Assembly: GCF_028368995.1 (NCBI RefSeq)
Contig: NZ_JAQNDL010000003.1
Location: forward strand, 2,560,001 to 2,624,000
From: Nannocystis bainbridge
Lineage (GTDB): Bacteria > Myxococcota_A > Polyangia > Nannocystales > Nannocystaceae
Direction: 5' to 3'
DNA: 64,000 bases
A model generated the notes under the pieces. It was given only the letters and a program-made list of their open reading frames with translations, made no database searches and was not told the origin of the DNA. This document shows, in pieces, positions 7,479-63,490 of this stretch (within the stretch, counting starts at the first letter, position 1; every line of letters begins with the position of its first letter). Made by a program: the position numbers and the translations under genes.

Positions 7479-7665
7479 GCGTCGACTGCCACCATTCAGG
7501 TCAGGCCCGGCCGCGCCACGCGCGAGCCGGGCTGCTGTGTTTGCCCTGCCTCAATGATCATAGCATCCGGTGAGCCCGAGGCGATGGACAGGTTCGGCAC
7601 GTCGCGCCGCAGCCGGCGCGGGACCGCGCCGGCTCTCCATCGACTAGTCCTTCAGGACATGTCCC

Positions 7666-9033
7666 TCAGAACACGTGGCCGACGTCGACGTAGAAGCCCT
7701 GCGTCTTGTCGGTCGGCGAGTACGCGCCGTCGAAGCGGACCAGGAACGTCTCGCCCCAGCGCACGCGCAGGCCGCCGCCGGTGCCGAGCTTGAAGGTGCC
7801 GCCGTCGATGCCCTGGCCGCCGAGCTCCGTGCGGCCGAAGTCGGCCCAGATCCGCGCGGCGTCGAGGAACGCCACCGCGCCGACCGTGAAGTGGTTGTTC
7901 TTGATCGTGAACTTCCAGAACATGCTGCGGAGCTCGAGGTTCTGGATCAGCTTGATCTTGCCGGCGTAGCGCTGGCGCGGCACCCCGCGCAGCGACCACC
8001 CGCCGCCCGGGCCGTCGCGGGGCATCAGCGCGCCGAAGCGCGTCAGCTCGTAGAACGGCGCGTCACCGACGATCACGTCGGCGACCCCGCGGATCGCAAA
8101 CGACAGCCACTCGCCGAGGAACGCCTTGTACCACGCGCTGTTGAGGCTGAACGCCGCGTAGCGCAGGTTCTGCTGGACCCCCGGCGAGGCGCGGACCGTC
8201 AGCTCGGTGAAGGTCCCGCGGGTCGGCGTGTACTCGTGGTCGCGGGTGTCGAACAGCGCGCCCGCGCTGAGCACCACGAGCGCGTGCGGATCTGTCCCCT
8301 GGAGCAGGTTGCCGAGCGCCTTGCCGTCGGGCGTGCCCGACGCCTTGAGGGCGATGTCCTGCTCGAGCAGGCTGCCGGCGTACGGCCGCACGATGTTGTA
8401 GGTCGTGTTGAGCCCGACCAGCGCCTCGATGCGGCGCCGCTGCTGCACCGTCGAACGGTCCCACACCTTGATGCGGGCGTTGAAAAGCAGCAGTGGGTAG
8501 ATGTGATCGAAGCGGTGGTAGCGGCGCGCGGCCTGGTAGGCCATCAACTCCTGGTCGGGGTCGATGCCCTCCCACGGCTCGGTCGCCGCCGAGTCGTTGC
8601 CGAACCCGTAATAGCCGGTGTTGGCGAACTTGCGGAAGCCGACGCGCGCGGTGATCCGCAGGCGGTCGCCGGCCAGCCCGGGGAAGTCCATGTTGAGGTA
8701 GTCGTCGTGGAACGGCACCTCGATGCCGCGGCCCGGCGCGCGCTTGGCGTTCGCCGACAGCAGCAATTCGAGGCGCCAGCGGTACGGGCGATAACCCGGC
8801 GAGAAGCGGGCCACGCTGGCGATCAGGCCGAAGCCGAGCCCGAGGTCGCTGTCGTAGCTGAGGGCCGGCAGCGCCCCGATCTCGATGCGCTCCGGCTTCG
8901 GCGGGCCCTTCGGCTTCTTCGGCTGCTTCGGCTTCTTGACCCGATCCTTGGCGGCCGCGGCCACAGGCACAGGCGCAGCGATCGCGCAGACCACCAATGC
9001 CGCCAGCAGCGCGGGCAGCCGGCGCCGGCACAA
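7666..9033 (-). CDS. Omp85/BamA-TamA family outer-membrane beta-barrel without obvious POTRA domains
   Basis: Signal peptide, YDSDLGLGFG, FDTRDHE, LRGVPRQRYAG (LRG..RF motif), C-terminal VGHVF. Start uncertain (TTG 9033). Confidence 0.75.
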   Translation of the reverse strand: MCRRRLPALLAALVVCAIAAPVPVAAAAKDRVKKPKQPKKPKGPPKPERIEIGALPALSYDSDLGLGFGLIASVARFSPGYRPYRWRLELLLSANAKRAPGRGIEVPFHDDYLNMDFPGLAGDRLRITARVGFRKFANTGYYGFGNDSAATEPWEGIDPDQELMAYQAARRYHRFDHIYPLLLFNARIKVWDRSTVQQRRRIEALVGLNTTYNIVRPYAGSLLEQDIALKASGTPDGKALGNLLQGTDPHALVVLSAGALFDTRDHEYTPTRGTFTELTVRASPGVQQNLRYAAFSLNSAWYKAFLGEWLSFAIRGVADVIVGDAPFYELTRFGALMPRDGPGGGWSLRGVPRQRYAGKIKLIQNLELRSMFWKFTIKNNHFTVGAVAFLDAARIWADFGRTELGGQGIDGGTFKLGTGGGLRVRWGETFLVRFDGAYSPTDKTQGFYVDVGHVF

Positions 9034-9090
9034 TGCATATATGTCCCCAAAGACAGGTGACGCCCGGGCTCGCTGTGGTAAGGTCGCCGC

Positions 9091-10416: not shown

Positions 10417-10418
10417 CC

Positions 10419-11867
10419 ATGAAGCTGCCCGAGACCGGATGGACCCGCGACCAGATCTTCACCGCCCTCGCCGAATTGCGTGCGGGTGATTTGCCCACTG
10501 AAGGCGGTGCCGCCTTCGCTTACGTCTACGACTCGGGCGAGCGCGCCGCGAGCGAGCTGGCGGCCGAGGCGTTCCGCCTGTTCCTCGGCAGCAACGGCCT
10601 CGACCCGACGGCCTTCCCCAGCCTGCTGCGGCTCGAGAACGAGGTCGTCGGCTTCGCCGCGGCGCACCTCGGCGGCGGGCTCGAGGCGGCCGGCTCGTTC
10701 ACCAGCGGCGGCACCGAGAGCCTGATGCTGGCGGTCAAGACCGCGCGCGAGTGGGCCCGCGAGCATCGGCCCCACATCACCGCGCCAGAGATGATCGTGC
10801 CGGCGACCGCTCACGCGGCGCTGCACAAGGCGGCCCATTATCTCGGCGTCACGCTGGTGCCGACGGCGATCGACCCGATCAGCTTCCGCGCCGACGTGGC
10901 CGCGATCGCGGCCGCCATCACCCCCAACACGATCCTCCTCACCGCCTCGGCCTCGAGCTACGCCCACGGCGTGGTCGACCCGATCGCCGAGATCGGCCAG
11001 CTCGCGCTGCGGCACGAGCTGCTGTTCCACGTCGACGGCTGCATCGGCGGGTTCTTGCTGCCGTACTTCCGCCGCCTCGGCGCCCAGGTGCCGGCGTTCG
11101 ACCTGTCGGTCCCCGGCGTCACCTCGGTGTCGATGGACTTCCACAAGTACGCCTACGCGCCCAAGGGCGCGTCGGTGATCGTCTACCGCGACAAGGCGCT
11201 GCGCCGGCACCAGATGTACGCGTGCGCCGGCTGGACCGGCTACACCGTCATCAACCCGACGGTCCAGAGCACCAAGTCGGGCGGGCCGCTGGCGGCCGCG
11301 TGGGCCCTGCTGCGCGCCATCGGCGATCAGGGCTACCTCGACCTGGCCCAAAGGACACTCGATGCGACGCGCGCGATCATCGGCGGCCTGCGCGAGATCG
11401 AGGGCCTGCGCGTGCTCGGCGAGCCGGAGATGAGCCTGGTCGCCTTCACCGGCGCGAGCCCCGAGTTCCCGCTGTTCGCCCTCGCCGACGCGATGAAGCT
11501 GCGCGGCTGGCTGGTCCAGCCGCAGTTCTCCGGCTTCGGCTCGCCGGCCAACCTGCACCTCACGATCAGCGCCGCTCACCTCGCGGTCAAGGACCGCTTC
11601 CTCGCCGACCTCCGCGCCGCCGTCGCCGAGGTCCAGACGAGCCCGCCCGACCCGGGCATGGCGCTCCTGCTGCAGGCCGCCGCCGCGCTGGACTTTTCGA
11701 ACATGTCCGAAGAGACATTCATGCAGGCGCTCGCGCTCGCCGGGGTCCAGGGCGGCCGCCTGCCCGACAAGATGGCGGCCATCAACGGCCTGCTCGACGC
11801 CCTGCCCGCGCCGGCCCGCGAGGCGGCGATCGTCGCGTTCGTCAACGACCTCTACACGCATGCCTAG
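10419..11867 (+). CDS. PLP-dependent sphingosine-1-phosphate lyase-like enzyme
   Basis: AYVY, NGLDPTAFPS, TSGGTESL, TAHAALHKAA, HVDGCIGGF, SMDFHKYAYAPKG. Confidence 0.8.
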   Translation: MKLPETGWTRDQIFTALAELRAGDLPTEGGAAFAYVYDSGERAASELAAEAFRLFLGSNGLDPTAFPSLLRLENEVVGFAAAHLGGGLEAAGSFTSGGTESLMLAVKTAREWAREHRPHITAPEMIVPATAHAALHKAAHYLGVTLVPTAIDPISFRADVAAIAAAITPNTILLTASASSYAHGVVDPIAEIGQLALRHELLFHVDGCIGGFLLPYFRRLGAQVPAFDLSVPGVTSVSMDFHKYAYAPKGASVIVYRDKALRRHQMYACAGWTGYTVINPTVQSTKSGGPLAAAWALLRAIGDQGYLDLAQRTLDATRAIIGGLREIEGLRVLGEPEMSLVAFTGASPEFPLFALADAMKLRGWLVQPQFSGFGSPANLHLTISAAHLAVKDRFLADLRAAVAEVQTSPPDPGMALLLQAAAALDFSNMSEETFMQALALAGVQGGRLPDKMAAINGLLDALPAPAREAAIVAFVNDLYTHA

Positions 11868-12979: not shown

Positions 12980-13035
12980 GCTGAAGTGAGTTTCAGCAAA
13001 ATGGAGAAGGCCGTCAAGGGCCGAATTCGCGGCCC

Positions 13036-16324: not shown

Positions 16325-16726
16325 GCCCGTCCCCGAAGGACCTCGCAGTCGGCGCCGCGCCCGCGCCGCTCGAGGGCCGCATCGGCGACGCGCCCATGCC
16401 CGGGTTCACTCCTGGGCCAGGGCCCGGCGGCACCTGTCTTCAAGGACAGACGGACCCCGGCCCGCGCTCGTCCGCGCGCGACGTGGCGTGAGCCACGTGC
16501 AGCGGCCCGGCGAACGCGACCCGAACGGTGGTCTCCTCGCGCCGCGGCCCGAACCGCCGCGGGCGCGCGTGTGGCCGCGCGGCGCACAGCATGACGATCG
16601 CGCAAGCCGGCGCACGAGGCCGCGGAGAGCTGATAGAACTGTGTCCGTGTGGACCCGTGGCGCGGCCGCTCCGGGTGTGGCCCAGGAAACAATCTGACGC
16701 TGCGGATCGGCGCTATCGCGACGGAC

Positions 16727-18151
16727 ATGGAAGAACGCCAACACCACGAGCCTTCTCCGCCCCGCGCCCCGCTGTGGGCGCGGTTGTTCGGCCCGGTCGA
16801 CATCGCCTCGCTGGTCTGCTTCCGCGTCGCGTTCGGCGTGCTGATGATGGCCGAGGTGGTCCGCTACATCCCGCGGATCGCCCGCTACTACATCGACCCG
16901 CCGCTGCACTTCTCCTACTACGGCTTCGAGTGGGTCCGGCCGTGGGCGGGCGACGGCATGTACGTGCACTTCGGCGTGCTCGGCCTGGCCGCCCTGTGCA
17001 TCACCATCGGCCTGTGTTACCGGCTCGCCGCCGCGGTGTTCTTCCTCGGCTTCAGCTACATGTTCCTGCTCGAGCAGGCGCGCTACCTGAACCACATCTA
17101 CCTGCTGTGCCTGATCGCCTTCATCATGATCTTCGTGCCGGCGCACCGGGCCTTCTCGGTCGACGCCTGGCTGCGGCCGAAGCTGCGCCGTGACACCGCG
17201 CCGAAGTGGGCGCTGCGGCTCGTGCAGCTGCAGATCGGCATCCCCTACGTCTACGGCGGCCTGGCCAAGCTCAACCCCGACTGGCTGCGCGGCGAGCCGA
17301 TGCGCATGTGGCTGGCCGAGCGCGCCGACCGGCCGATCGTCGGCCCGCTGATGACCCAGGAGTGGGTCGTCTACTTCTTCAGCTACGGCGGCCTGCTGTT
17401 CGACCTCTTCATCGTCCCGGCGATGCTGTGGCGGCGCACCCGGCCGTGGGCGTTCGTCGCGGCGCTCGGCTTCCACTTCATCAACGGCAACATCTTCACC
17501 ATCGGCATCTTCCCGTGGGTGATGGCCGCGGCGACGCTGATGTACTTCCCGCCCGACTGGCCGCGGCGCTTCCGCGACCTCCTCGGCCGCCTGCTGCGCC
17601 TGCCGCCGGCCGCGGCAAAGCCCGCACTGCCGCCCGCGCCGCTGCCGACCCGACTCGGCCGCGGCCAGAAGTGCCTGCTGACGTTCCTCGGCGTCTACAC
17701 CGCCTGGCAGCTGCTGTTCCCGCTGCGGCACTGGCTCTACCCCGGCGACGTCGCCTGGACCGAAGAGGGCCACAAGTTCTCGTGGCGCATGAAGCTGCGC
17801 GACAAGGGCGGCAGCGTCGCCTACCACGCCACCGACCCCACGACCGGCGAGTCGTGGAAGATCGACCTGCGCGGCAAGATCAAGCGGTGGCAACTGTCCG
17901 AGATGACAGGCCGACCCGAGATGATCTTGCAGCTCGCACATTACCTGGGCGAACAGCTGCGCGCCGAGGGCATCCCCGATGTCGAGATCCGTGCTCTCGC
18001 CCCTGTTTCGCTCAACGGTCGCGAACCCGAGTTCCTGATCGACCCGGAAGTCGACCTCATGAAGGTCGAACGAAGCTTGCTTCCGGCAACCTGGATCCGC
18101 CCCGAAGCCCCGCTCGAGCCTGCGGCCGAGGCGCGTCTGTCAGAGATGTAA
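16727..18151 (+). CDS. HTTM-domain / vitamin K-dependent gamma-carboxylase-like membrane protein
   Basis: SLVCFRVAFG, YLNHIYL, GGLAKLNPDWLRG, FHFIN..F.IGIFP, WTEEGHKFSWRMKL. Confidence 0.85.
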   Translation: MEERQHHEPSPPRAPLWARLFGPVDIASLVCFRVAFGVLMMAEVVRYIPRIARYYIDPPLHFSYYGFEWVRPWAGDGMYVHFGVLGLAALCITIGLCYRLAAAVFFLGFSYMFLLEQARYLNHIYLLCLIAFIMIFVPAHRAFSVDAWLRPKLRRDTAPKWALRLVQLQIGIPYVYGGLAKLNPDWLRGEPMRMWLAERADRPIVGPLMTQEWVVYFFSYGGLLFDLFIVPAMLWRRTRPWAFVAALGFHFINGNIFTIGIFPWVMAAATLMYFPPDWPRRFRDLLGRLLRLPPAAAKPALPPAPLPTRLGRGQKCLLTFLGVYTAWQLLFPLRHWLYPGDVAWTEEGHKFSWRMKLRDKGGSVAYHATDPTTGESWKIDLRGKIKRWQLSEMTGRPEMILQLAHYLGEQLRAEGIPDVEIRALAPVSLNGREPEFLIDPEVDLMKVERSLLPATWIRPEAPLEPAAEARLSEM

Positions 18152-21365: not shown

Positions 21366-22031
21366 ATGAAGGCGCTGATCGTCGAGGATGACGTCAAGGT
21401 CGCGCTCTTCATCGCCCGCGTCCTCACGGAGGAGGGATGGGTCACCGACCAGTGCACCCACGGCGCCGACGCCGTGCGCCAGGCGCGGTCTGTCGAGTAC
21501 GACATCATTCTGCTCGACTGGATGTTGCCGGACATCGACGGCCTCGCCGTGTGCCGCGAGCTGCGGCGGGCCGGCTCGGTCGCGCCGATCATCATGTTGA
21601 CCGCGCGCGGCGAGGTCTCCGAGCGCGTGCTCGGGCTCGAGGCCGGCGCCGACGACTACGTCGTCAAGCCGTTCGAGATCGACGAGCTGCTGGCCCGCGT
21701 CAGCGCGCTGCTGCGGCGGACCCAGGGCTTCGGCCGCTTGCAGGTCGGCGGCCTCGAGATCGATCGCCTGCGCCGCGTCGTCACCCTCGAGAACAAGCCG
21801 GTCGATCTCACCGGCCGCGAGTACGCGCTGCTGCTGTGCCTGGCCAGCCAGGAGGGCCGCGTCGTCGCTCGTTCGGAGTTGCTGACCCAGGTCTGGGCGA
21901 CGCACTTCGACCCCGGCTCCAACCTCATCGACGTCCAGATCAGCCGCCTGCGCGACAAGCTCGGCGACTACGCGTGGATGATCGACACCGTGCGTGGCAA
22001 GGGCTACCGTCTCCGGCGCGACCCGCCATGA
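21366..22031 (+). CDS. OmpR-family response regulator
   Basis: LIVEDD, LDWMLP, MLTAR, GADDYVVKPF, wHTH ending TVRGKGY. Confidence 0.93.
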   Translation: MKALIVEDDVKVALFIARVLTEEGWVTDQCTHGADAVRQARSVEYDIILLDWMLPDIDGLAVCRELRRAGSVAPIIMLTARGEVSERVLGLEAGADDYVVKPFEIDELLARVSALLRRTQGFGRLQVGGLEIDRLRRVVTLENKPVDLTGREYALLLCLASQEGRVVARSELLTQVWATHFDPGSNLIDVQISRLRDKLGDYAWMIDTVRGKGYRLRRDPP

Positions 22032-26621: not shown

Positions 26622-26742
26622 AGGGCCAGGCTCGAAGCGGCACCGCGCGCCTCTCCCCTGTCCTCATGGACATGTCTGCTCGCCACCGGCTCACGGGCAT
26701 CGAGGTCCGCGACCGCCTCGCGCGCGTGGCCTCACGCCCCTC

Positions 26743-27633
26743 GTGATCCCCGCCGCGCCTGGCGTGCTACAACCCAAGCGCGTGGAGGTCGAGCGCACCC
26801 GACACGGGCCCTTCGAGCGGCTGTCCTTCGCCTTCGCCACTGCGACGGGTCGCAGCCAGCACTCCGTCTATCGCCTCGGTGACACCTTGATCGACGCTGG
26901 CGGCACCGTCGCCACCAAGGAGCTGCTCGCCCTCCTGCGCGATCGGCCCCCGCGGCGGATCGTCTGCACCCATCAGCACGAGGATCACGTCGGCAACATC
27001 GCCGCCATCCGGCGCGCCTTCGGCGACCTGCCCGTGTTCGTCCCCCGGCATCACGTCCCGATCGTCACCACCACGGCGCGGATCCCCGAATATCGCGCCC
27101 TGTTCTGGGGCCACCCCGAGCCCAGCGGCCCCGTCGAGCCCTACGACCCCGGGGCTGTCTTCGAGGACAGCTCCGTCGCCCTCGAGGCCGTGCTCACCCC
27201 TGGCCACACTCCCCATCACATCACCTTCGTCGCCCGCGACGGCGCCACCACCTACGCCCTCACCGCCGACCTCTACACCTCGCGTCCGCTCGAGGGATGG
27301 TTCGAGTCGGCCGCCGACGACATGATCGCCTCGCTGCGCCGCATCGCCGCCCGGACCCCGGACCTGGTCGTGCTGCCGAGCCACGGCCGGATCAAGCCCG
27401 ACGGCGCACGTGTCCTTTCAGACATGTCCGTCTGGATCGAGCGCGAGGCGACGCGGATCCACCTCGCCGCCGAGCGCCTCGGCACCCGCGACCCGCGGGC
27501 CATCGCCGCCGCCGTCTACGCCGACCTCGGCCCCGACCTCGCCGACCTCGGCTCCGGCGGCGAGATCAGCCGCGCCGGCTTCGTCCGCTCGATCCTCAGC
27601 CCCAACCGCGGCCTGCCCGTCGACCCCCCGTGA
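26743..27633 (+). CDS. MBL-fold metallo-hydrolase
   Basis: LIDAG, THQHEDHVG, TPGHT, TADL, PSHG. Confidence 0.85.
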   Translation: MIPAAPGVLQPKRVEVERTRHGPFERLSFAFATATGRSQHSVYRLGDTLIDAGGTVATKELLALLRDRPPRRIVCTHQHEDHVGNIAAIRRAFGDLPVFVPRHHVPIVTTTARIPEYRALFWGHPEPSGPVEPYDPGAVFEDSSVALEAVLTPGHTPHHITFVARDGATTYALTADLYTSRPLEGWFESAADDMIASLRRIAARTPDLVVLPSHGRIKPDGARVLSDMSVWIEREATRIHLAAERLGTRDPRAIAAAVYADLGPDLADLGSGGEISRAGFVRSILSPNRGLPVDPP

Positions 27634-28564: not shown

Positions 28565-33025
<4,461 letters not shown>

Positions 33026-33216
33026 CCGGCGAGTATGCCAACCCCGCGCCACCCGCAGAAGTCGAAGCGACCGACCGGGCTCCGTGCAGGCGCCCACAAC
33101 ATGTCTTTCGAGACATGTTTTTAGAGACATTTGTCCGACGACCGTCCGCACGGCCTCTCTGGCGCGTTCCCGCGGACCGCGCGCAAGCAGGCGACCCGTG
33201 TTACACTGGCGCGCAC

Positions 33217-41827: not shown

Positions 41828-42040
41828 TTACTCGCTCCACCCCGCTCACTGTCACTCGCGCTGCACCCCGCTCCACGCCGGCAGCGAGTGAGCCGTCGCC
41901 TCTGCTCGCTCCGCCCCATTACTCGCGCTGCTCTCCGCTCCATGCAACGAGTGAGCCGTCGCCTCTGCTCGCTCCGCCCCATTACTAGCGCTGCACCTCA
42001 GTCCACGTGGCAGCAAGTGAGCCACCGCTACTCGCTCCGC
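41828..42040. repeat. ~63-70-nt tandem repeat (about three units) between convergent genes
   Basis: GTGAGCC at 41888, 41951, 42017; CTCGCTCC at 41831, 41905, 41968, 42031. Confidence 0.85.
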
Positions 42041-45173: not shown

Positions 45174-46732
45174 AGCGAGCGGCGCAGCGCCTCGGGGTCC
45201 TGCGCCGCGCCCATCGCCGCCTCGAGCGACACCTTGCGCGCCCGCACCAGCGCCGCCAGCGACTGCTCGAGCGACACCATCCCGTCGGCTCGACCGGTCT
45301 GGATCGCCGTGGCGATCTGGTGCCCGCGGCCCTCGCGGATCTGGGCCGCCACCGCCGAGGTCACCAGCATCTTCTCAAAAGCCACCGCCCGCTCGTTGCG
45401 CGACACCGGCACCAGCACCTGCGTCACGATCGCCCGCAGCGTGCCTGCCAGCTGCAGCCGCACCTGCGTCTGCTGGTGGCCCGAGAACCCGTCGATGATG
45501 CGGTCGACCGCCATCGCCGCCCCGGCCGCGTGCAGCGTCGAGAGCACCAGGTGGCCCGTCTCTGCCGCCGTGAGCGCCGCCGAGATCGTCTCCGGGTCGC
45601 GCATCTCGCCGACCAAAATGATGTCGGGCGCCTCGCGCAGCGACGCCCGCAGCCCCTCGGCGAAGCTCGACACGTCCTTGCCGACCTCGCGCTGGTGGAT
45701 CAGCGCCTTCTTGCTCGTGAACACGTGCTCGACCGGGTCCTCGAGCGTCACCACGTGCCGGGCCGCCGTGCGGTTGACGTGCTCGACCAGCGCCGCCAGC
45801 GTCGTCGACTTGCCCGAGCCCGTCGGCCCCGTGAACAGCACCAGCCCCGCCGGATAGCCGACCAGCGCCGTGAAGTCCTCCGGCAATCCGAGCTCCGCCA
45901 GCGTCGGCGCCTTGTCGCGCACCGGCCGGAGCGCCGCCGACAGCCCGCGCTGCTGGCGGAACACGTTGGCGCGGAAGCGCAGCCCGCCGAGGTCGAGCGC
46001 CGTGTCGACGCTGCCTGCCGCGCGCAGCCGGGCCCGCTGCTCCGGGCTCAGCACCTCGGCGAACAGCGCCGCGATCGCGGCCTCCGACGCCTGTGTCCCG
46101 ATCTCGCGCAGGTCGCCGGCCGTGCGCACCCGCGGCGCCAGCCCGGCCGAGAAGATCACGTCCGCCGCCCCCTCCCAGTGGGCCCGCTGCAGCACCCCAC
46201 GCAGCTCGTCGGCCGCCCGCTGCGCCTCCTCGTCGGGCTCTTCGGACATGTCCTCCGGGACATATTCGTGGACCACCGGCGCCGGCGCCGGCTGCACCGG
46301 CGCCTCGGTCCGGCGCCCAGGCGTCGGCGGTCGCACCGGCGGCGGCGGCGCGGGCGTGCGCACCGGCGGCAGGTCGGGCACCGGGTGGCTGTCCTGAGGG
46401 ACAGGTCTCGAAGCACCTGTCCCTGCGGTCACCCGCGCCTTGGCCAGGCTCAGGTGGTAGCGCCCGCCGTCGATCTTGAGCTCGCCGGAGAACCGCTGGC
46501 CCTCGAACGTGTGCTCGACCTTGACCGACTTGCGCAGGTCGAGCTCCTGGCGCTGCTCCGGCGTCACCAGGTCTTCGAAGAACATCGCCACCATCTCGTG
46601 GCTGACCTTCGGCATCGACAGCGGCACGTCGGCGCCGGCGCGTTTGAGCGAGGGGACGCGTTCGGAGGCGAGGACCAGGCCGTCGGCCTTCTGGGCGTCG
46701 AGGATCTTGAGCAGCGAGTCGATCGCGGCCAT
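45170..46732 (-). CDS. pilT: PilT/PilU-family type IV pilus retraction ATPase with extra N-terminal domain
   Basis: GPTGSGKSTT, LEDPVE, QREVG, LREAPDIILVGEMRD, AETGHLVLSTLH, AVAAQIRE. Confidence 0.88.
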   Translation of the reverse strand: MAAIDSLLKILDAQKADGLVLASERVPSLKRAGADVPLSMPKVSHEMVAMFFEDLVTPEQRQELDLRKSVKVEHTFEGQRFSGELKIDGGRYHLSLAKARVTAGTGASRPVPQDSHPVPDLPPVRTPAPPPPVRPPTPGRRTEAPVQPAPAPVVHEYVPEDMSEEPDEEAQRAADELRGVLQRAHWEGAADVIFSAGLAPRVRTAGDLREIGTQASEAAIAALFAEVLSPEQRARLRAAGSVDTALDLGGLRFRANVFRQQRGLSAALRPVRDKAPTLAELGLPEDFTALVGYPAGLVLFTGPTGSGKSTTLAALVEHVNRTAARHVVTLEDPVEHVFTSKKALIHQREVGKDVSSFAEGLRASLREAPDIILVGEMRDPETISAALTAAETGHLVLSTLHAAGAAMAVDRIIDGFSGHQQTQVRLQLAGTLRAIVTQVLVPVSRNERAVAFEKMLVTSAVAAQIREGRGHQIATAIQTGRADGMVSLEQSLAALVRARKVSLEAAMGAAQDPEALRRSL

Positions 46733-55965: not shown

Positions 55966-58889
55966 GCGGCGCGGGCTCTCGCGGCCGGCTGCTTCGACTG
56001 GCCGTTCGGACATGGCCCTTCGCGCTGGTCACCGCGCTCGGCCTGTGGCTGCTGTGGCCGGTGCCCGCCGGCGTGATGCCGCTGTCGGCCGATCACACGG
56101 TGCACCTCACGCGCGCCTGGCTCTACGGCCAGCAGCTCGCCGGCGGCCACCTGGTCGGCTGGAGCCCGTTCTGGTTCTTCGGCTTCCCGCTCGGCGAGCT
56201 CTACCCGCCGCTCGGTGACCTGCTGGTCCTCGCCGTCCGCGGGCTCAGCCTCGGCCTGCTCGACTGGGCCCAGGCGTACGCGCTCGCGTTCACCCTCGTG
56301 TTCCTGCTGCAGGGCTGGGCCCTGCTCCGCTGCGGCCGCGCCCTCGGCCTCGGCCCGCTCGCCGGGCTCGTCGCCGCCGCCCTGGCCCTGCTCGACGCGG
56401 GGGCCTACCGCGAGGGCGGGTGGGTCTACACCGTCACTTACGGGGTCTGGCCGCAGGCCCTGGCCACCAGCCTGGCCTACTGGGCCCTCGCCGAGCTGGC
56501 CCTCGCCGCACGTGTCCGCGAGGGCATGTCCCCGGGGACACATCACCGCCACCTCGCCCTCGCCGCCTTCGCCACCGCCGGCGCCGTGCTGGCCCACCCG
56601 ATGAGCCTGCCGATGCTCGCCATGGCCGCCCCGCTGTGGCTGCTCACCGTCGGCTTGCGCGGCCCCGGGGGGCCGCAGGGCCGGAACGATTCGAGCGCGC
56701 CGGGGGTCGCAGGGAGGCCTGTCCCTGCGGCTATCTCGTCCAGCGCAGCCTCGCCTGTCCCTTCGGCCATCTCGGCCTGCGCGAACTCGCCTGTCCCTGC
56801 GGCCATCTCGGCCAGTGCAGCCTCGCCTGTCCTTTCGGCCATCTCCACCGGCTCGCGCTCACCTGTCCCTTCGGCCATCTCGGCCTGCGCGAACTCGCCT
56901 GTCCCTGCGGCCATCTCGGCCAGTGCAGGCTCGCCTGTCCTTTCGGCCATCTCCACCGGCTCGCGCTCACCTGTCCCTTCGGTCAGCCCCATCACCCGCC
57001 GCGAGCGGCTCGCCGGCGCCGCCCTCGACCTCGCGCTGGCGCTCGGCCTCGGCCTCGCGCTGGCCGCCTGGTGGCTGTGGCCGATGAGCGCCCACCGCGG
57101 CTACATGGCCAGCTACGGCTGGCTCTACGCCCCGCTCGACGCCATGGTGCGCATGCTGCGGGCGGGCCAGTGGACCCAGCTCATGGCGCCCGCGGCCGGC
57201 TTCACGGCGCTGCTCGGGCTCGGGATCGCCGCCGTGCGCGGCTCCGGCTTCCTCCGCTTCCTCGCCCTGCTCGCCCTGCTCCACTGGCTGCTCGCCAGCA
57301 CCGACGTGTTCTGGACCCTGCGCCTCGATCGCCTCAGCAGCGGCTTCTCGCACATCCAGTACCAGCGGTTCCTGACGGCCGCCAAGCCGGCCCTGTTCCT
57401 GCTCGCCGGCGCCGTCGTCGGCGGTCTCGCGGTCCTGGCCCGCAGGACATGGTCCAAACGCCCTGCCCTACGAGCCATGTCTATCGGGACAGCCGTCGTC
57501 GCCGCCGCGCTCGTCGCCTGGCTCGCGCGCGACGCCTGGAACCTGGCCCGGCGCCACGGCGTCGGCGTGGTCCAGGTCGAGCGAGTGCCCGGAGATCCCG
57601 CCTTCGAGGCCGCGTACCAGCAGTTCCTCGCGTGGGCCGCGAGCGCCCGCCAGGGCCAGCCCGCGGGCGGGCGGATCGCCGTCCGCACCGACCGCAACGC
57701 CCACTGGTTCATGGACAGCCCGGTCTACACCGGCGCGCCGATCTACAAGCTCGGCTTCACCCCCGGCGACAACTTCGTCCACAAGCCCGAGGCCGGCTCT
57801 TCGCGCATCCTCGACCTCGCCCAGGCCCGCTATCTGCTCACCACCGGCGGCAGCGGGGCCTCGCAGATCGCCAGCTTCGGCCCCCTCCGCGTGTTCGAGC
57901 GCCCCGGCGCCGCCGGCATCGCCCGCGTCGACGGCCCCGGCGAGCTCCGCGTCGAGGCGGCCGACCTGCAGGCCGGCCGCGTGCGCGTGCGCCTGACCGG
58001 CACCGCGCCTGACTCGCGCCTGGTGTTCCACGTCGCCGGCTACCCGCGCTGGGACCTGTCCTTTCAGCCAGGCGACGACGCGCCCGCCGAGTCGGTCCCG
58101 TGGATCGAGGTCCCCGTGGTCGGCGACGGCCCGACCGCCACGCCGGAGCAGCGGCTGCGCGGCGAGCTGCGCGGCGGCAAGGCCCTCGGCGACGACGGCA
58201 GCGAGCCGACGCTGATCGCCGCGCCCGCGCGCGACGGCGTGTTCGAGCTCCACTACGCCCGCTGGCGCTGGTTCGACGCCGCCGGCCTGCTGGCCAGCCT
58301 CGCGGCCCTGATCGCATGTGTCTCTTTGCTCAGGTCGCCGCGCCTGGTCGATCGCCTGGGCCCGCTCGCCCGCCGCCTCGCCCACCCCGCCGTGCTCGCC
58401 GCCCTCGTCGCCGCCGCGCTGCTCGTCGCCGGCCTGCGCTGGCGCGCCGCTGCCGGGCGCGAGCGCCCGCAGGCCAGCGCCCGCCTCGCCGACGGCCGCG
58501 CGACCGCCACGCACGCGCGCAGCGGCCCGCTGAAGACCGACATGTTGATCTTCCCGGCCGTGCTCGCCGACCCGCGCCGCCCCACCGAGGTCGTCTTCGA
58601 GGGCGTCGCCCCCGGGCCCACGCTCGACGCCTGGTTCGCGCTCGACGACGACGACGCCAAGCAGCGCCGCCGCGGCTCCTACCGCGTCCAGGTCGACGCC
58701 CGCGCGCCCGGCAGCCCCGCGTGGACCCCCCTCGCCGACTTCACCGCGGCCCACCGCCCCGATCGCCAGCGCCCACGCATACCTGTCCCCGAGGACATGC
58801 AACGCGCCGCCGACCTCACCGTCCGCATCACCCCCTCGGGCGAAGCACCGCCGAGGTTCGGCTTCGACGTCGTGCTGGCAGATCCGTGA
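55962..58889 (+). CDS. Large polytopic membrane protein, GT-C/YfhO-like, with repeat insertion
   Basis: DH..H, GW...WFFGFP...YPPL, many TM segments, periplasmic region with YPRW. Confidence 0.7.
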   Translation: MSGAGSRGRLLRLAVRTWPFALVTALGLWLLWPVPAGVMPLSADHTVHLTRAWLYGQQLAGGHLVGWSPFWFFGFPLGELYPPLGDLLVLAVRGLSLGLLDWAQAYALAFTLVFLLQGWALLRCGRALGLGPLAGLVAAALALLDAGAYREGGWVYTVTYGVWPQALATSLAYWALAELALAARVREGMSPGTHHRHLALAAFATAGAVLAHPMSLPMLAMAAPLWLLTVGLRGPGGPQGRNDSSAPGVAGRPVPAAISSSAASPVPSAISACANSPVPAAISASAASPVLSAISTGSRSPVPSAISACANSPVPAAISASAGSPVLSAISTGSRSPVPSVSPITRRERLAGAALDLALALGLGLALAAWWLWPMSAHRGYMASYGWLYAPLDAMVRMLRAGQWTQLMAPAAGFTALLGLGIAAVRGSGFLRFLALLALLHWLLASTDVFWTLRLDRLSSGFSHIQYQRFLTAAKPALFLLAGAVVGGLAVLARRTWSKRPALRAMSIGTAVVAAALVAWLARDAWNLARRHGVGVVQVERVPGDPAFEAAYQQFLAWAASARQGQPAGGRIAVRTDRNAHWFMDSPVYTGAPIYKLGFTPGDNFVHKPEAGSSRILDLAQARYLLTTGGSGASQIASFGPLRVFERPGAAGIARVDGPGELRVEAADLQAGRVRVRLTGTAPDSRLVFHVAGYPRWDLSFQPGDDAPAESVPWIEVPVVGDGPTATPEQRLRGELRGGKALGDDGSEPTLIAAPARDGVFELHYARWRWFDAAGLLASLAALIACVSLLRSPRLVDRLGPLARRLAHPAVLAALVAAALLVAGLRWRAAAGRERPQASARLADGRATATHARSGPLKTDMLIFPAVLADPRRPTEVVFEGVAPGPTLDAWFALDDDDAKQRRRGSYRVQVDARAPGSPAWTPLADFTAAHRPDRQRPRIPVPEDMQRAADLTVRITPSGEAPPRFGFDVVLADP
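56715..56990 (+). repeat. In-frame 36-nt tandem repeat x8 (SPVPSAISACAN-like)
   Basis: CCTGTCC with TGTC at 56720, 56756, 56792, 56828, 56864, 56900, 56936, 56972. Confidence 0.92.
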
Positions 58890-59031
58890 TTTTTTGTCCG
58901 TTGCAGGCTGTCCTCGAGGACATGTGAAGCTTGCTCCCAGCCCCTCCGACGCAACGACGTAGCTCGCCCCGTTGCGGCCAGCCTGCAAACGAGTAGCCCT
59001 GCCCCGCGCGCCCGCGTGGGCTCCCTCAGCA

Positions 59032-59454: not shown

Positions 59455-59554
59455 CGGACTCGGGCCCGCTCACGAGCCTCCCGCAAAGCGGCCCAGGAAC
59501 CGGGCAGCGTCGCTCGGCCTCGCGCACCCTGCCGACTTCCGCTAAGCTGAGAAC

Positions 59555-60211: not shown

Positions 60212-60483
60212 GATGCGCCTCGCGGTCGACCCTCAGCTCCGTCGTCCGGGCGGGCGCCCTGTCGCGCACAGCCGAGCCCGCTGCGAATCCATGGCAGCCG
60301 CGGTGAGCTGGAGACTCTCGAGCGCCCCTCGATATCCTGTCTGAAGGGACAGGTTATTTTTAAAGAATCCCGCTTCCTCCTCCCGGCTCGCCGCCCGCGA
60401 ACTCGAGCGCTGCTGTCGGGCCGCCTGGATGCTCACCGCTCGCCGGCTCGCCTCAAGGCGCGAGTGCGCCCGTGCCGGGCGAC

Positions 60484-60560: not shown

Positions 60561-60645
60561 TGATAGCCTTCTCGGACCGCGATGTCGGCCTTTGCGTCGC
60601 GCCGCGGTTTGCGCGAACCTCTCGAGGCGTCCTCGCCGGAGTCCC

Positions 60646-61551: not shown

Positions 61552-61651
61552 GGCCGCGCAGCCGCTCGAGCGAGCCCTGGTGCCTCGCGCCCGTGATTCG
61601 TCGATCCTGGCCGCCTTGATCCGCCCCCTCGCGCCCCGCGTAACCTCGCCC

Positions 61652-63490
61652 GTGCCCGCTCGCCTCGCCGTCGCGCTCGCCGCTTCGCTCCTGTCCTTCG
61701 GGACATCTTGCAACAAGCAGCCGGCCGCCCCGCCGCCCGTCGCCCCGACCGCGCACGTCGAGCCGGCCTGGCGCGCCTGGGAGCCCGCGGCGTTCGAGGC
61801 CGCCAGGACCGGGCGCAAGATCATCCTCGTCGACGTGATCGCCAGCTGGTGTCACTGGTGCCACGTCATGGACGAGGAGACCTACGCCGACCCCGAGGTC
61901 GCCGCCCTGCTCGCCGAGCACTTCGTCGCCATCCGCGTCGACAGCGACGCCCGCCCCGACGTCGCCGAGCGCTACGCCGACTGGGGCTGGCCTGCCACCG
62001 CGATCCTCACCAGCGACGCTCGCCCCGTGCTCGAGCTGCGCGGCTACCAGGACCCGCGCGAGTTCGCCGCTCTCCTGCGCAAGCTCGTCGCCGACCAGCA
62101 GGCCGGCAACCTCACCGGCCGCGTCTCCCTGCCCGCTCCGCCGCCGCGCGGCGGTGACCTCGTCGACCTGCGCAAGCTCGCCAGCGACCAGCTCGACCGC
62201 ACCTGGGATCCCGACCAGGCCGGCTGGGGCCGCAAGCAGAAGTACCCGCTGGCCGCCAACAACGAGTACAGCCTGTTGCGCGCCTACCTGTACCAAGAGA
62301 CAGCCTGGCAAGAGCGCGGCCTGCTCGTCCTCGACCGCCAGCGCAACCTCATCGACCCGGTGTGGGGCGGCATGTACCAGTACAGCGTCCACGGCGTGTG
62401 GACCGACCCGCACTTCGAGAAGATCGCCCCCATCCAGGCCGGCGCGCTCGAGAGCTACGCCCTCGCCTGGCGCCGCACCCACGACCCGAAGTGGCGCGCC
62501 GCCGCCGGCGACATCGCCCGCTACCTCCTGCAGTTCTGGCGCGACCCCGACGGCGGCTTCTACACCAGCCAGGACGCCGACCTGCGCCTTCCGACAGGTC
62601 GCAAAGGACCTGTCCTTGGGGACGAATACTACGCCAAGGACGACGCCGCCCGCCGCGCTCTCGGCGTCCCCGTCATCGACACCCACGTCTACGCCGACCG
62701 CAACGGGGCCATCCTGCGCGGCCTCCTGCTGCTCGACGCCGTCGCCCCGGACGAGGCCGTGCGGGCCGCCGCGCTGCAGGCCGGCGAGCGGCTGGTCCGC
62801 ACCCACCGCGACGACCGCGGCGGCTTTCGCCACGCCGCCGCCGACCGCGGGCTGTTGCATCTGAGCGACCAGGTCGAGGTCGGCCGCGGCCTGCTCGCGC
62901 TGTGGCGCACGACCGGCGACCCGAAGTGGCAGCAGCTCGCGCGCGACGTCGCCGATTTCGCCCTGCGCGAGCTCGCCGACCCCGCCGGAGGGTTTTACGC
63001 CCACACCGTCGATCCCGCGGCGACCGGCGCCTTCGCCGAGCGGCGCAAGCCGTTCGACGACAACGCTCGCATGGCTCGCTTCCTGCTCGAGCTGCACCGC
63101 GGCCTCGACCACGACGCCGACGACCTGCCCTACGCCAGAGCGGCCGAGCTGGCGATTCGCGCCATCGCCCAGCCCGAGGCCGTCAAGGCGCAGATGCGCC
63201 AGGTCGGCGACTACTTGCTCGCGCTCGCCGAGCTGACCGCCACCCCGATCGACATCACCGTGGTCGGCCGCCCCGACCAGCCGGCCGCGCAGGCGCTCCT
63301 GCGCGCCGCCCTCGCCTACGACGAGCCGCGCGCCAACATCAGCCTCAGCCCGCCCGGCGCCCGCTACCCCGACCTGAAGCAGCCGGCCGCCTACCTCTGC
63401 ACCGACTCCGCCTGCTCGACCCCGATCACCGCGGTCGATCGCTTCGAAAAGTCAGCCGAGGCGTTCCTGCGCGGCGTCCCTCGCCCCTGA
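61652..63490 (+). CDS. YyaL/SPATA20-like thioredoxin-domain (DUF255) lipoprotein
   Basis: WCHWCHVMDEETY, RPD, GWP, D...GG, PHFEK, GGFYTSQDAD. Confidence 0.85.
   Translation: MPARLAVALAASLLSFGTSCNKQPAAPPPVAPTAHVEPAWRAWEPAAFEAARTGRKIILVDVIASWCHWCHVMDEETYADPEVAALLAEHFVAIRVDSDARPDVAERYADWGWPATAILTSDARPVLELRGYQDPREFAALLRKLVADQQAGNLTGRVSLPAPPPRGGDLVDLRKLASDQLDRTWDPDQAGWGRKQKYPLAANNEYSLLRAYLYQETAWQERGLLVLDRQRNLIDPVWGGMYQYSVHGVWTDPHFEKIAPIQAGALESYALAWRRTHDPKWRAAAGDIARYLLQFWRDPDGGFYTSQDADLRLPTGRKGPVLGDEYYAKDDAARRALGVPVIDTHVYADRNGAILRGLLLLDAVAPDEAVRAAALQAGERLVRTHRDDRGGFRHAAADRGLLHLSDQVEVGRGLLALWRTTGDPKWQQLARDVADFALRELADPAGGFYAHTVDPAATGAFAERRKPFDDNARMARFLLELHRGLDHDADDLPYARAAELAIRAIAQPEAVKAQMRQVGDYLLALAELTATPIDITVVGRPDQPAAQALLRAALAYDEPRANISLSPPGARYPDLKQPAAYLCTDSACSTPITAVDRFEKSAEAFLRGVPRP

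Follow-up and report, generated by a model that had tools for sequence, protein, structure and literature searches.

The window analyzed here, a 64-kb stretch of the Nannocystis genome, holds genes for a Ser/Thr kinase, a dihydrouridine synthase, and a PilT-like T2SSE ATPase, among others, together with 33 exact copies of the spaced palindrome TGTC-N6-GACA (Table 1). An earlier note on this DNA had listed 30 starts, all of which are exact copies; the three additional copies begin at 17895, 21491, and 27156. The stricter rule offered in that note, TGTCY-N4-RGACA, describes 31 of the 33 sites, while those at 17895 and 21491 depart from it. The site at 21491 is present in this genome only and is possibly a chance match. 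Alignment of the window sites to four congeners gave 132 site-by-genome comparisons, comprising 75 kept, 23 lost, and 34 unaligned sites.

Table 1. Copies of TGTC-N6-GACA and related repeats in the 64-kb window. Congener status is from alignment to four congeners.
Feature	Position	Context	Kept	Remarks
Site TGTCCCCAAAGACA	9042..9055	Non-coding, between called genes 7666-8970 and 9091-10416	2/4	
Site with ACATG left flank	11704..11717	Stretch 10417-13035, left uncalled	2/4	
Site	16435..16448	Non-coding, 188 nt past stop of gene 14793-16247	Unaligned in 4 congeners	
Site	17895..17908	HTTM / VKGC-lumenal-domain gene 16649-18151	4/4	Departs from Y5/R10
Site	21491..21504	Response-regulator gene 21366-22031	0/4	Departs from Y5/R10
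Site	26659..26672	Non-coding, 38 nt past stop of gene 25692-26621	0/1 aligned	Right flank runs on as ...GGACATGTC
Site	27156..27169	Metallo-beta-lactamase-fold gene 26743-27633	3/4	
Site	27411..27424	Gene 26743-27633, past its Pfam domain	4/4	Right flank GGACATGTCC-like
Site	28921..28934	Ser/Thr-kinase gene 28565-33025 (minus strand)	1/4	
Site	30358..30371	Kinase gene 28565-33025	4/4	Arms kept; spacer and flanks vary
Site	30902..30915	Kinase gene 28565-33025	0/4	Only in this genome
Site	31801..31814	Kinase gene 28565-33025	2/4	
Site AACATGTCTTTCGAGACATGTT	33102..33115	Divergent intergenic region 33026-33216	4/4	TTTTT next; RNA fold -9.8 kcal/mol
Site	35812..35825	Near 5' end of dihydrouridine synthase gene 35753-36871, ahead of Dus domain	4/4	
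Site	38458..38471	N-terminal part of PGA_cap gene 37418-38557 (minus strand)	4/4	Flanks with indels
Site	38506..38519	N-terminal part of PGA_cap gene 37418-38557	4/4	48 bp from site 38458
Site GGGACATGTCCTGTGGGACAT	39195..39208	Gene 38746-39684 (without Pfam match)	4/4	
Six sites: 40272, 40340, 40376, 40412, 40520, 40550	40272..40563	Gene 39829-41817	4 kept, 2 lost (only 6 aligned comparisons)	Within 36-bp tandem repeat encoding Pro/Ser-rich linker (...DLSPETSSPR...)
Site	42267..42280	Gene 42028-43587 (minus strand, without Pfam match)	4/4	
Site	43979..43992	Gene 43584-45173 (minus strand, without Pfam match)	4/4	
Site	46249..46262	Linker of PilT-like T2SSE ATPase gene 45170-46732, ahead of ATPase domain	4/4	Peptide VPEDMS
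Site	46390..46403	Linker of T2SSE ATPase gene 45170-46732	3/4	Forms three-unit, 14-bp-phased array with upstream neighbors
Site	56527..56540	Membrane-protein gene 55962-58889	4/4	Peptide MSPGT
36-bp tandem repeat, 7.4 copies	56717..56982	Gene 55962-58889		Each unit bears TGTCC-N4-GGCCA, the commonest one-mismatch form (peptide PVPxAIS)
Site	57478..57491	Gene 55962-58889	3/4	
Site	58784..58797	Gene 55962-58889	4/4	Peptide VPEDM
Site	58909..58922	20 nt past stop of gene 55962-58889	Unaligned	Fold no better than shuffles
Site CCTGTCTGAAGGGACAGG, then TTATTTTT	60338..60351	Non-coding	Unaligned	Fold -12.7 kcal/mol
Site	61692..61705	Near 5' end of thioredoxin-like gene 61580-63490, ahead of domain	3/3 aligned	

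The over-representation reported earlier is confirmed. Dinucleotide shuffles of the window predict 0.65 copies (sd 0.81, largest 4), and the real count was reached in none of 100 shuffles. The 11.05-Mb genome contains 3,663 copies, compared with 29–175 for spacers of 0–5 and 7–19, placing the excess specifically at spacer 6; a spacer of 20, which corresponds to two abutting sites, gives 984. The excess also holds under a codon-aware null, a control named in the earlier note, as called coding sequence contains 1,240 copies versus 85–100 in five synonymous-codon shuffles and 50–56 in three codon-order shuffles. Coding counts at spacers 3–5 and 7–9 are close to, or only modestly over, the codon-shuffle null, the largest excesses being at spacer 5 (37 versus 14–24) and spacer 7 (106 versus 67–84).

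Across the genome, 2,381 copies (65%) lie in non-coding DNA, 1,239 fall wholly within coding sequence, and 43 overlap a gene boundary, counts that carry some error because the genes (7,254, 78.6% coding) come from our own crude caller. The claim that most copies lie in coding sequence is thus true of the window (26/33) and not of the genome. A sharp pile-up of sites just past stop codons had been missed, and it brings REP-like (repetitive extragenic palindrome) and gene-end functions into consideration. Sites number about 10–16 per 20-nt bin inside gene ends and 319–461 in the first bins past stops; 38% of sites lie 0–100 nt after a stop codon, and in 1,488 of the 7,254 called genes a site falls between -10 and +150 of the stop. 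At least one site is found in 561 of 1,342 convergent, 726 of 3,352 tandem, and 206 of 1,448 divergent intergenic regions, and in tandem regions the median distance from a site to the upstream stop is 91 nt, compared with 233 nt to the next start. These placements would all be expected of hairpins in RNA (or single-strand DNA) at gene 3' ends, acting as terminators that lack a U-tract or as REP-like stabilizers of mRNA 3' ends, with in-gene copies as tolerated by-products. Divergent regions, where transcripts should not end, nonetheless hold 306 sites. The pile-up and the convergent > tandem > divergent trend, being equally predicted by an RNA 3'-end hairpin, count against a protein reader of the sites.

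The earlier note did not recognize that the sites belong to a larger element, in which a 10-bp palindromic core, GGACATGTCC, recurs in exact 14-bp steps with four free bases separating the cores; TGTC-N6-GACA is the inter-core view of this array. Pairs of RCATGY occur at distances of 14 (2,363), 28 (1,261), 42 (955), 56 (456), and 70 (165), versus 21 and 26 off-phase pairs at distances 13 and 15, and arrays extend up to 8–10 units. In 793 arrays of at least three units, adjacent spacers are identical in 4.7% of pairs versus 1.2% of random pairs; within arrays the cores are kept and the spacers are free. The basic site is a 14-bp spaced palindrome with the consensus [A/C]TGTCC-N4-GGACA[T/G]. 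All four combinations of A/C at position -1 and T/G at position +14 are present (1458, 540, 606, and 651), complementary bases are by our calculation not over-represented at positions 5 and 8, and the arms show little or no sign of compensatory double changes. The half-sites act independently, not like pairing partners.

In favor of hairpins, two abutting cores could pair as a 9–10-bp stem with a 4-nt loop, and one-mismatch variants in tandem intergenic regions show a weak bias toward G-U wobble on the transcribed strand (194 versus 144 for the mirror). This wobble bias was also counted against a protein reader; non-wobble mirror controls differ equally (70 versus 107), and in coding sequence the wobble direction is reversed. 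However, pairing does not require a fixed arm sequence, yet one is common to thousands of copies, and the flank and inner base preferences follow the half-site rather than pairing. Relative to the direction of transcription, neither T..G nor C..A predominates at positions 4/9 (140 versus 148 intergenic, 132 versus 155 in coding sequence). Given a genome of 72% GC, the predicted stems are weak (-8.4 to -15 kcal/mol for six folded sites, two of them no better than shuffles), no U-tract follows the sites (96 versus 80 for the mirror control, of 730), and the 1,240 in-gene copies are conserved at the nucleotide level. Hairpins are considered an unlikely explanation.

Conservation between species was probed over 875 kb compared with the congener G005, which include 309 sites, 204 of them in incompletely aligned windows and unscored. 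Arm identity is 93.8% at non-coding sites (n = 30) and 95.9% at coding sites (n = 73), compared with 70% and 84.7% for spacers and 78.8% and 85.3% for flanks. In-gene copies lie in Pro/Ser/Ala-rich linkers and poorly conserved segments, occupying all three frames and encoding a different peptide in each, and, of the arm bases that are A/T at a third codon position, 92.5% are conserved (n = 80) versus 39–43% for all third-position A/T. These results support the earlier proposal that the motif is maintained at the DNA level, independent of the protein code. Arm conservation alone does not distinguish protein reading from stem pairing.

A drive through biased repair or conversion would keep the sites as well, which counts against a protein reader. 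In one such explanation, a methylation- or repair-linked mutational bias converts near-matches to the palindrome and single sites are functionless; Elhai's model reportedly treats HIP sequences as a by-product of such a bias. Within the core lies CATG/RCATGY, which methyltransferases commonly target, and the genome has genes for several N6/N4 methyltransferases. Relative to each of the four congeners, site 30902 shows three substitutions, each toward TGTCC-N4-GGACA. HIP sequences have also been linked to methyltransferases (passages in PMC4390886). However, neither a C5 methyltransferase nor a Vsr endonuclease was found in the genome (90.5% complete), and the 14-bp phasing and post-stop pile-up would go unexplained. 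One-mismatch forms, most commonly A11 to C, remain plentiful (8,008 versus 1,421–3,428 at control spacers 4, 5, 7, and 8) instead of having been converted throughout to perfect copies, and similar conservation of HIP1 is interpreted as selection (PMC5861425). Mutational bias is judged a very doubtful source of the motif.

Site content turns over between species. Among 273 orthologous intergenic regions, a site is present here in 65, in G005 in 56, and in both in 42, leaving 23 with a site here only and 14 in G005 only; regions with sites in both frequently hold unequal numbers of them. Such turnover, together with the many, mainly extragenic, clustered copies, would suit a REP/REPIN- or MITE-type miniature element spread by a transposase. 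Against this, neither a Y1 (RAYT-type) transposase nor TnpB was found in the genome, and the sites lack a shared MITE-like body or terminal repeats, with 362 of 3,188 flanks resembling the flank of another locus. Of 13 clean one-sided indels, none is limited to a site or array, and one gap of 228 bp includes a site; many in-gene copies arose or persist via substitution, and we know of no transposable unit nearly as small as 14 bp. A mobile origin is most improbable.

The REP/BIME elements of enterobacteria and pseudomonads, including REPINs with their RAYT, are nevertheless alike in being short, clustered, mostly extragenic palindromes at gene 3' ends that are commonest between convergent genes. 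Gyrase and IHF are among the proteins known to bind these elements on DNA. In contrast to their units of about 35 bp, the motif here is 14 bp long, perfectly symmetric, and phased, and has one third of its copies in genes, where they are conserved; no RAYT was found in the genome.

The motif is present in every genome of the genus examined, faint in the sister genus (87 copies versus 10 for a control pattern), and essentially absent from some 430 further genomes in the phylum. The earlier view of a genome-wide, lineage-specific motif agrees with both its chromosomal distribution and the phylum survey, and it extends beyond a single window or assembly. Its description as novel also stands, as literature searches (supplementary files outside their scope) found no published account. 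In a GC-rich soil bacterium and its close relatives, a single short spaced palindrome recurs thousands of times and has the look of a genome-wide DNA signal not described before, a parallel to the puzzle of cyanobacterial HIP1.

HIP1 (GCGATCGC) is likewise a short, lineage-specific palindrome that exceeds its expected frequency by one to two orders of magnitude, lies inside and between genes, is conserved at orthologous positions, and has no known peptide or RNA role. It is a contiguous 8-mer, whereas the motif here is a bipartite 14-mer with a free center and exact 14-bp arrays, is concentrated just past stop codons, and belongs to a different phylum. HIP1 also has cognate methyltransferases; here none has been assigned. 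The function of HIP1 is under debate, with roles in chromosome structure or DNA uptake proposed (PMC5861425, PMC13756078), the uptake signal being a recent hypothesis (PMC13756078).

By analogy, molecular drive could maintain the motif as a signal of self-DNA or for uptake: an uptake or recombination machine that prefers motif DNA would cause the motif to spread through the gene pool of the genus. Genus specificity, conservation at orthologous positions, and depletion from low-GC, skew-less, acquired-looking patches (4–10 sites per 100 kb versus a mean of 33) are consistent with such a role. The USS of Pasteurellaceae and DUS of Neisseriaceae, which operate in this manner, similarly reach thousands of copies, are confined to a genus or family, occur within genes in tolerant frames and weakly conserved segments, are rarer in acquired DNA, and frequently form inverted pairs just past genes. 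However, they are asymmetric 9–12-mers rather than bipartite palindromes, the exact 14-bp arrays are unexplained, no uptake receptor was identified, and natural transformation is, to our knowledge, not known in Nannocystis. An uptake signal is quite unlikely.

The excess and its spacer-6 specificity, the arrays, the distribution along genes and genome, the arm conservation, and the confinement to one lineage are best read as marks of a genus-specific family of duplex-DNA sites recognized by a symmetric protein, an interpretation drawn from sequence that we give an even chance of being correct. A dimeric, sequence-specific protein of this lineage would read each site with one half-site per subunit. 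Abutting 14-bp sites share the core and form arrays, on which neighboring dimers may pack side by side; with about 1.3 helical turns per 14 bp, three such dimers would take up four turns. Selection, or continuing drive, on the nucleotides themselves would keep the sites, which would consequently gather where they are least harmful, just past stops and in disordered Pro/Ser/Ala-rich linkers. By analogy with REP/BIME, binding may primarily mark gene ends or affect DNA topology; a second preference is a self-DNA or uptake mark, as for USS/DUS and possibly HIP1. No candidate reader was identified in the genome, which counts against a protein reader.

Operators of dimeric winged-helix and helix-turn-helix repressors share the 4-6-4, 14-bp geometry, in which the outer bases are specific and the center is free, as in the phage 434 operator ACAA-N6-TTGT. 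Such operators are few per genome and lack post-stop arrays, whereas the motif here numbers in the thousands. The geometry of the PadR operator fits, yet no PadR-family gene was found in the genome (90.5% complete). The PadR operator, CATG-N10-CATG, is the best geometric match (passages in PMC5728393), and the extended form of the motif, ACATGT-N8-ACATGT, matches the frame of the B. subtilis padC operator given there.

The palindrome TGTC-N6-GACA is strongly over-represented in the window, which contains 33 exact copies compared to a mean of 0.65 (sd 0.81, maximum 4) in dinucleotide-preserving shuffles; none of 100 shuffles matched the observed count. All 30 start positions listed in an earlier note on this DNA are among the exact matches, and three additional sites are located at 17895, 21491, and 27156. 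The same note stated that every copy has a pyrimidine at position 5 and a purine at position 10, a rule (TGTCY-N4-RGACA) that describes 31 of the 33 sites but fails for the remaining two. In the whole Nannocystis bainbridge genome (G000; 11.05 Mb in 5 contigs, ~71.5% GC), a spacer of 6 yields 3,663 copies versus 29-175 for spacers of 0-5 and 7-19, and the 984 copies with a spacer of 20 correspond to two abutting sites. Genes were called with a crude, author-written caller based on codon usage, which returned 7,254 genes (78.6% coding) and missed some real ones. Within these called genes the spacer-6 count is 1,240, compared to 85-100 in five synonymous-codon shuffles and 50-56 in three codon-order shuffles. 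Under the same codon shuffles, spacers 3, 4, 8, and 9 are at the null level and only a modest excess is seen for spacer 5 (37 versus 14-24) and spacer 7 (106 versus 67-84); the excess specific to spacer 6 thus withstands a codon-aware null. The at least 15-fold palindrome excess over composition-aware nulls that characterizes HIP-type sequences is found both in and between genes. Forms with one mismatch number 8,008 in G000, compared to 1,421-3,428 at control spacers, and replacement by G or C is best tolerated at T2 and A11, whereas G1 and C12 tolerate change least.

A logo over all 3,663 sites widens the motif to (G)ACATGTCC-N4-GGACATGT(C), with A (58%) or C (37%) at position -1 and T (59%) or G (35%) at position +14. 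The 8-mer GACATGTC occurs 2,237 times, compared to 155, 38, and 3 occurrences of the like-composition palindromes GTCATGAC, CACATGTG, and GACTAGTC. Distances between RCATGY words peak at 14 (2,363), 28 (1,261), 42 (955), 56 (456), 70 (165), and 84 bp (79), versus 21 and 26 pairs at the off-phase distances of 13 and 15, showing that the element consists of 14-bp units repeated in tandem. This unit is a 10-bp palindromic core, GGACATGTCC, followed by four free bases, and the 14-mer originally described begins with the right half of a core, crosses the free bases, and ends with the left half of the core that follows. When cores with at least 8 of 10 matches are counted, G000 contains 793 arrays of 3-10 units, some with higher-order periods of 28, 42, or 56 bp. 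Neighboring spacers within arrays are identical in 4.7% of 1,689 pairs, compared to 1.2% of random pairs. The cores and the 14-bp step are thus kept while the nearly random spacers drift. Of the perfect sites, 2,136 stand alone, with no other within 120 bp, and 1,527 lie in clusters of 2-9. Another pattern, TGCA-N8-TGCA, is over-represented in G000:C2:2500001-2700000, which includes the window, with 27 copies where other spacers have a median of 1; either a variant of the palindrome cores (GCATGC-type) or a second motif may underlie it.

The placement of the sites relative to genes was found to differ between the window and the genome. The suggestion that most copies are coding holds in the window, where 26 of 33 sites lie in called genes, but not genome-wide, where 2,381 of 3,663 (65%) are non-coding, 1,239 are fully within called genes, and 43 cross an edge; the window is atypical in this respect. 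Intergenic density is highest between convergent genes (1.85 per kb), followed by tandem (0.91) and divergent (0.51) pairs, compared to 0.14 per kb in genes, and at least one site is found in 561 of 1,342 convergent, 726 of 3,352 tandem, and 206 of 1,448 divergent intergenic regions. The distribution is at its sharpest around stop codons. The last 200 nt of genes hold ~10-16 sites per 20-nt bin, and the first five 20-nt bins past the stop codon hold 319, 461, 344, 309, and 247, with decay beyond. Altogether, 1,398 of the 3,663 sites are centered 0-100 nt past a called stop, and 1,488 of the 7,254 called genes have a site between -10 and +150 of the stop.

Sites within genes are evenly distributed along gene length and occupy all three reading frames (635, 504, and 100 sites), encoding x-V-P/L-x-D-M/I/S, L/M-S-x-G-T, or C-P-x-G-Q depending on the frame. 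A peptide motif can be ruled out as the cause, since the frames give different peptides and synonymous shuffling abolishes the excess. Residues beside these sites are enriched in Pro (1.37-fold), Ser (1.28-fold), and Ala (1.19-fold) and depleted in Ile, Phe, Tyr, and Asn, and the densest clusters are low-complexity linkers repeating PVPADMS, AVPGDRS, DVLGDRG, LSPGTSS, and similar words. Among the annotated genes of the window, most sites fall outside Pfam domains, for example in the linker of a PilT-like ATPase and in the N-terminal parts of PGA_cap, Dus, and thioredoxin-like genes; site 17895 is a counter-example, located within a VKGC lumenal domain. The gene containing this domain (16649-18151) combines an HTTM domain (E 3.5e-91) with the vitamin-K-dependent gamma-carboxylase lumenal domain (E 1.2e-41), a pairing that is, to our knowledge, unusual in bacteria.

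Linker arrays of the site and the tRNA gene in the window
Feature	Window coordinates	Strand	Period	Composition or source
Linker array	40337-40566		36 bp	Perfect sites
Linker array	56717-56982		36 bp	Commonest one-mismatch form
tRNA gene	63607-63679	minus		Rfam

Other repeats are also present in the window. The gene at 39829-41817, which itself bears a 36-bp linker array, is flanked by tandem repeats at 39672-39836 (period 50 bp, 3.4 copies) and 41854-42059 (63 bp, 3.2 copies). A 64-bp tandem repeat at 59196-59439 (wider extent ~58990-59460; 3.9 copies, 71% matches) follows the gene at 55962-58889 in intergenic DNA; its units contain CACGCAATC and CGTAG words and are unrelated to the palindrome.

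Conservation between species was examined first across the window, which is syntenic with four congeners at ~90% nucleotide identity. In 132 site-by-genome comparisons, the site was kept in 75, lost in 23, and unaligned in 34, and at 38458, 38506, 30358, and 43979 the arms are intact amid indels and substitutions in the flanks. At site 30902-30915, three substitutions within 14 bp set G000 apart from all four congeners. Each is toward the consensus and the flanks are nearly unchanged, so that a templated patch or a selected gain is possible. A larger comparison with the congener G005 covered an 875-kb syntenic stretch with 309 sites, of which 204 were dropped because the 54 bp around them were incompletely aligned and 2 straddled a gene edge, so that the figures describe the fully aligned subset of 103. 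At non-coding sites (n = 30), identity is 93.8% in the arms, 70.0% in the spacer, and 78.8% in the flanks; at coding sites (n = 73), the values are 95.9%, 84.7%, and 85.3%. All eight arm bases are kept at 20 of 30 non-coding and 56 of 73 coding sites, compared to ~15% and ~28% expected from flank identity by our calculation. Around coding sites, flank identity (85%) is below the conservation of coding sequence as a whole (84-94% depending on codon position), so the sites lie in the less constrained parts of genes. The strongest individual evidence comes from third codon positions, where A/T in the arms is 92.5% conserved (n = 80), versus only 39-43% of such A/T in general because of decay to G/C, and third positions are 94.8% identical in arms versus 78.3% in flanks. 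The orthologue alignment proposed in the earlier note separates arms (94-96%) from flanks (79-85%) and third-position A/T in the motif (92.5%) from the general level (~40%), and these values show selection, or a continuing drive, on the nucleotides of the motif rather than on the protein. Conservation between relatives above the local background is likewise a property of HIP-type sequences. Among 273 orthologous intergenic regions, a site is present in 65 in G000 and 56 in G005, with 42 in both (~13 expected by chance), and the copy number in shared regions often differs between the two genomes.

The sites could act as duplex DNA or as hairpins at the 3' ends of RNA. At the flank pair -1/+14, all four combinations occur (A..T 1,458, A..G 540, C..T 606, C..G 651), so the preference is set per half-site with only mild association. 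Positions 5 and 8 favor a pyrimidine on the left and a purine on the right, and complementary pairs make up ~33%, as under independence by our calculation. Double changes in the arms give only weak signs of compensation: at positions 2/11, the pair C..G reaches 1.7-fold of expectation but G..C 0.9-fold, and admixed GC-rich background confounds the apparent associations at 0/13. No strand preference is evident at positions 4/9, where T..G and C..A relative to the direction of transcription number 140 versus 148 in tandem intergenic regions and 132 versus 155 in genes, and intergenic loop words are as frequent as their complements. Variants with one mismatch that keep a G-U wobble number 194 versus 144 mirror images in tandem intergenic regions and 142 versus 182 in genes; a non-wobble control pair differs equally (70 versus 107), and the wobble test is read as ambiguous. 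No U-tract follows the palindrome, as at least 5 T in the downstream 12 nt were found at 96 of 730 oriented stop-proximal sites versus 80 in the mirror control. Predicted RNA hairpins reach -8.4 to -15 kcal/mol, with two of six no better than shuffles. Without a U-tract and with such modest folds, the sites do not correspond to intrinsic (Rho-independent) terminators, and a search of the window with Rfam at gathering score returned only a tRNA and nothing overlapping the sites, ruling out a known RNA family. A hairpin, moreover, has no need of one fixed arm sequence across thousands of copies. Together, the half-site, covariation, strand, U-tract, fold, and fixed-arm evidence favors sequence-specific recognition of duplex DNA by a symmetric reader, and an RNA 3'-end hairpin is an unlikely explanation of the sites.

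Several established systems resemble the motif in part. Its gene-end niche and clustering resemble those of REP/BIME elements, and a check for REP features (imperfect palindromes restricted to extragenic DNA, often in clusters at gene 3' ends) found 65% of sites non-coding, the peak after stops, and clusters, but also 1,239 in-gene sites that are conserved there. In REP/REPIN-RAYT systems, the RAYT gene is usually flanked by the repeats. The defining Y1/RAYT transposase (PF01797) gave no match in G000 (90.5% complete), whereas the control search matched 6 of 14 reference genomes, and TnpB was also not found in G000 by a search that matched reference genomes; with neither found, REP/RAYT and IS200/IS605-type mobilization was rejected. 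Flanks of intergenic loci resemble the flank of another locus in 362 of 3,188 cases, and a longer shared body is absent. None of 22 indels of at least 8 bp in megablast alignments contains a site. Chained alignments were separated by 13 clean one-sided gaps, of which one (228 bp) contains a site and none is confined to a site or array, in a comparison of species that, at ~10% divergence, are too distant to catch site births. A MITE would have a shared body with terminal inverted repeats and target-site duplications; the unrelated flanks and, at that divergence, the lack of a clean, site-confined insertion speak against one, and a mobile element is a highly improbable source of the sites.

A by-product of DNA repair or methylation is very unlikely to account for the sites. 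HIP-type palindromes go together with cognate (orphan) DNA methyltransferases for the motif or its core, and G000 encodes methyltransferases of the N6/N4 type, with N6_N4 at ~nine loci, D12 at one, and three strong matches to N6_Mtase. Neither Vsr endonuclease nor a C5 DNA methylase (PF00145) was found in G000 (90.5% complete), although both control searches matched reference genomes, and very-short-patch repair with a C5 methylase was rejected on this ground. Comparison with described operators identified one further lead. Written in its extended form, ACATGT-N8-ACATGT, the site shares its frame with the Bacillus subtilis PadR operator, where the C, T, and G of CATG are stated to be contacted base-specifically (PMC5728393). 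The operator geometry fits a PadR-like reader, yet this lead fails because PF03551 finds no PadR-family gene in G000. The lack of any PadR regulator in an 11-Mb genome is itself unusual, given that the control search matched all 14 reference genomes.

By analogy, the closest counterpart of the motif is HIP1, which is 15-300-fold over-represented and conserved within and between reading frames; evidence that it acts through a peptide, an RNA, or gene regulation is lacking, and a role in chromosome structure has been suggested (PMC5861425). HIP1 has also been proposed to be an uptake sequence (PMC13756078), and Elhai linked HIP sequences to methyltransferases (PMC4390886). The main text of the latter, by term search, does not mention Sorangium or Myxococc, and in PMC3372372 Sorangium appears solely as an example of genome size. 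Both HIP1 and the motif are over-represented and conserved, and neither has a rationale in coding or in RNA; unlike HIP1, the motif is bipartite, with phased arrays and a gene-end niche. With the uptake sequences USS and DUS, the motif shares lineage restriction, tolerant-frame usage, and depletion in acquired DNA, but these are asymmetric words of 9-12 nt and the motif is a symmetric bipartite palindrome, to which that description does not apply. An uptake drive is quite unlikely to explain the sites. As HIP1, REP/BIME, and USS/DUS are each matched only in part, the motif is best filed with the highly iterated short palindromes, outside any named family.

The range of the motif is narrow. The 20-mer ACATGTCC-N4-GGACATGT occurs 142 times in G000, 6-69 times in nine of ten other genomes of the genus, and 3 times in one genome of a second genus, and is missing from 29 further genomes in the same family and class; a backwards control pattern is absent from all of these. 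In the tenth congener (G004, 64% complete, no 20-mer), 114 copies of TGTCC-N4-GGACA are present versus 1 of the control, and the corresponding counts are 333 (control 4), 450 (2), and 2,090 (6) in the congeners G002, G006, and G001 and 87 (10) in the sister genus (G011). The earlier concern that the enrichment might be an artefact of one window or assembly is thus allayed, as the motif is borne by the whole genome, by congeners, and, faintly, by the sister genus. Twenty loci inspected in G011 are a mixture of coding and intergenic sites with no arrays and are uninformative. Among 400 further genomes of the phylum (255 genera), the 18-mer CATGTCC-N4-GGACATG occurs once in each of three, compared to 369 copies in G000. 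De novo scans of small, 200-kb samples from G011 and from another genus of the family (G024) found no comparable spaced palindrome, although the same procedure recovered the motif with z 42 in G000 and z 22 in a congener; dialects of the motif in other genera are not supported by these scans. A phage origin was also rejected, since the 20-mer is found in only 8 viral contigs at one copy each.

The over-representation is real and strong, and it is reproduced across species. Judging from the 4-6-4 layout over 14 bp, which would match operators bound by dimeric helix-turn-helix proteins, a putative symmetric, sequence-specific protein would recognize the sites on duplex DNA, and the exact 14-bp step with drifting spacers suggests side-by-side packing on arrays. 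The chances are about even that such a protein reads the sites, as punctuation of gene ends and topology or as a self or uptake mark. A more specific version, to which little credence is given here, has a dedicated, symmetric DNA-binding protein encoded by the genus and forming phased lattices on GGACATGTCC arrays, one dimer per 14 bp, as gene-end punctuation. Such lattices would stand directly behind about one fifth of genes and in two fifths of convergent pairs, where they would block read-through transcription as a roadblock or insulate supercoiling, and single in-gene sites would belong to the same chromosome-wide scaffold. If this were true, gene boundaries would be marked genome-wide by a protein-based, sequence-coded system, and we know of no such kind described in bacteria.

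A literature search found no description of the motif in bacteria, with supplementary files, which may hold motif surveys, outside its reach. Hyper-abundant short palindromes such as HIP1, REP, and USS/DUS rank with the most poorly understood elements of bacterial genomes, and HIP1 has gone unexplained for three decades. The motif adds an independent second example, from an unrelated phylum, with unusually sharp clues in its dimer-like bipartite site, exact 14-bp phasing, and niche just past stop codons. Clear nucleotide-level selection in genes and a narrow range with a faint version in the sister genus add to these, and the reader protein and its function are thereby open to direct approach. 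In practical terms, binning and the detection of foreign DNA in these very large genomes gain a strong taxonomic signature, and the sequence of disordered protein linkers is shaped by the motif as well.

Along G000, each 100 kb holds between 4 and 60 sites, with a mean of 33 and a variance of 162. Mapping against origin and terminus, as had been proposed, showed no gradient along the 5 contigs, including across the GC-skew switch on C3, which is a weak test at this number of contigs. The lowest densities occur in patches of lower GC with little GC skew. In three of these (C1:1100000-1300000, C1:500000-600000, and C2:1800000-1900000), there are 4-10 sites per 100 kb, 68-69% GC, little skew, and fewer codon-typical genes; such patches are probably acquired islands. 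GC skew is negative on the plus strand across the window, reaching -0.28 at 40-44 kb, and persistently so over megabases of contigs C1 and C2, with sign changes close to C3:1.5 Mb and close to the C1 end.
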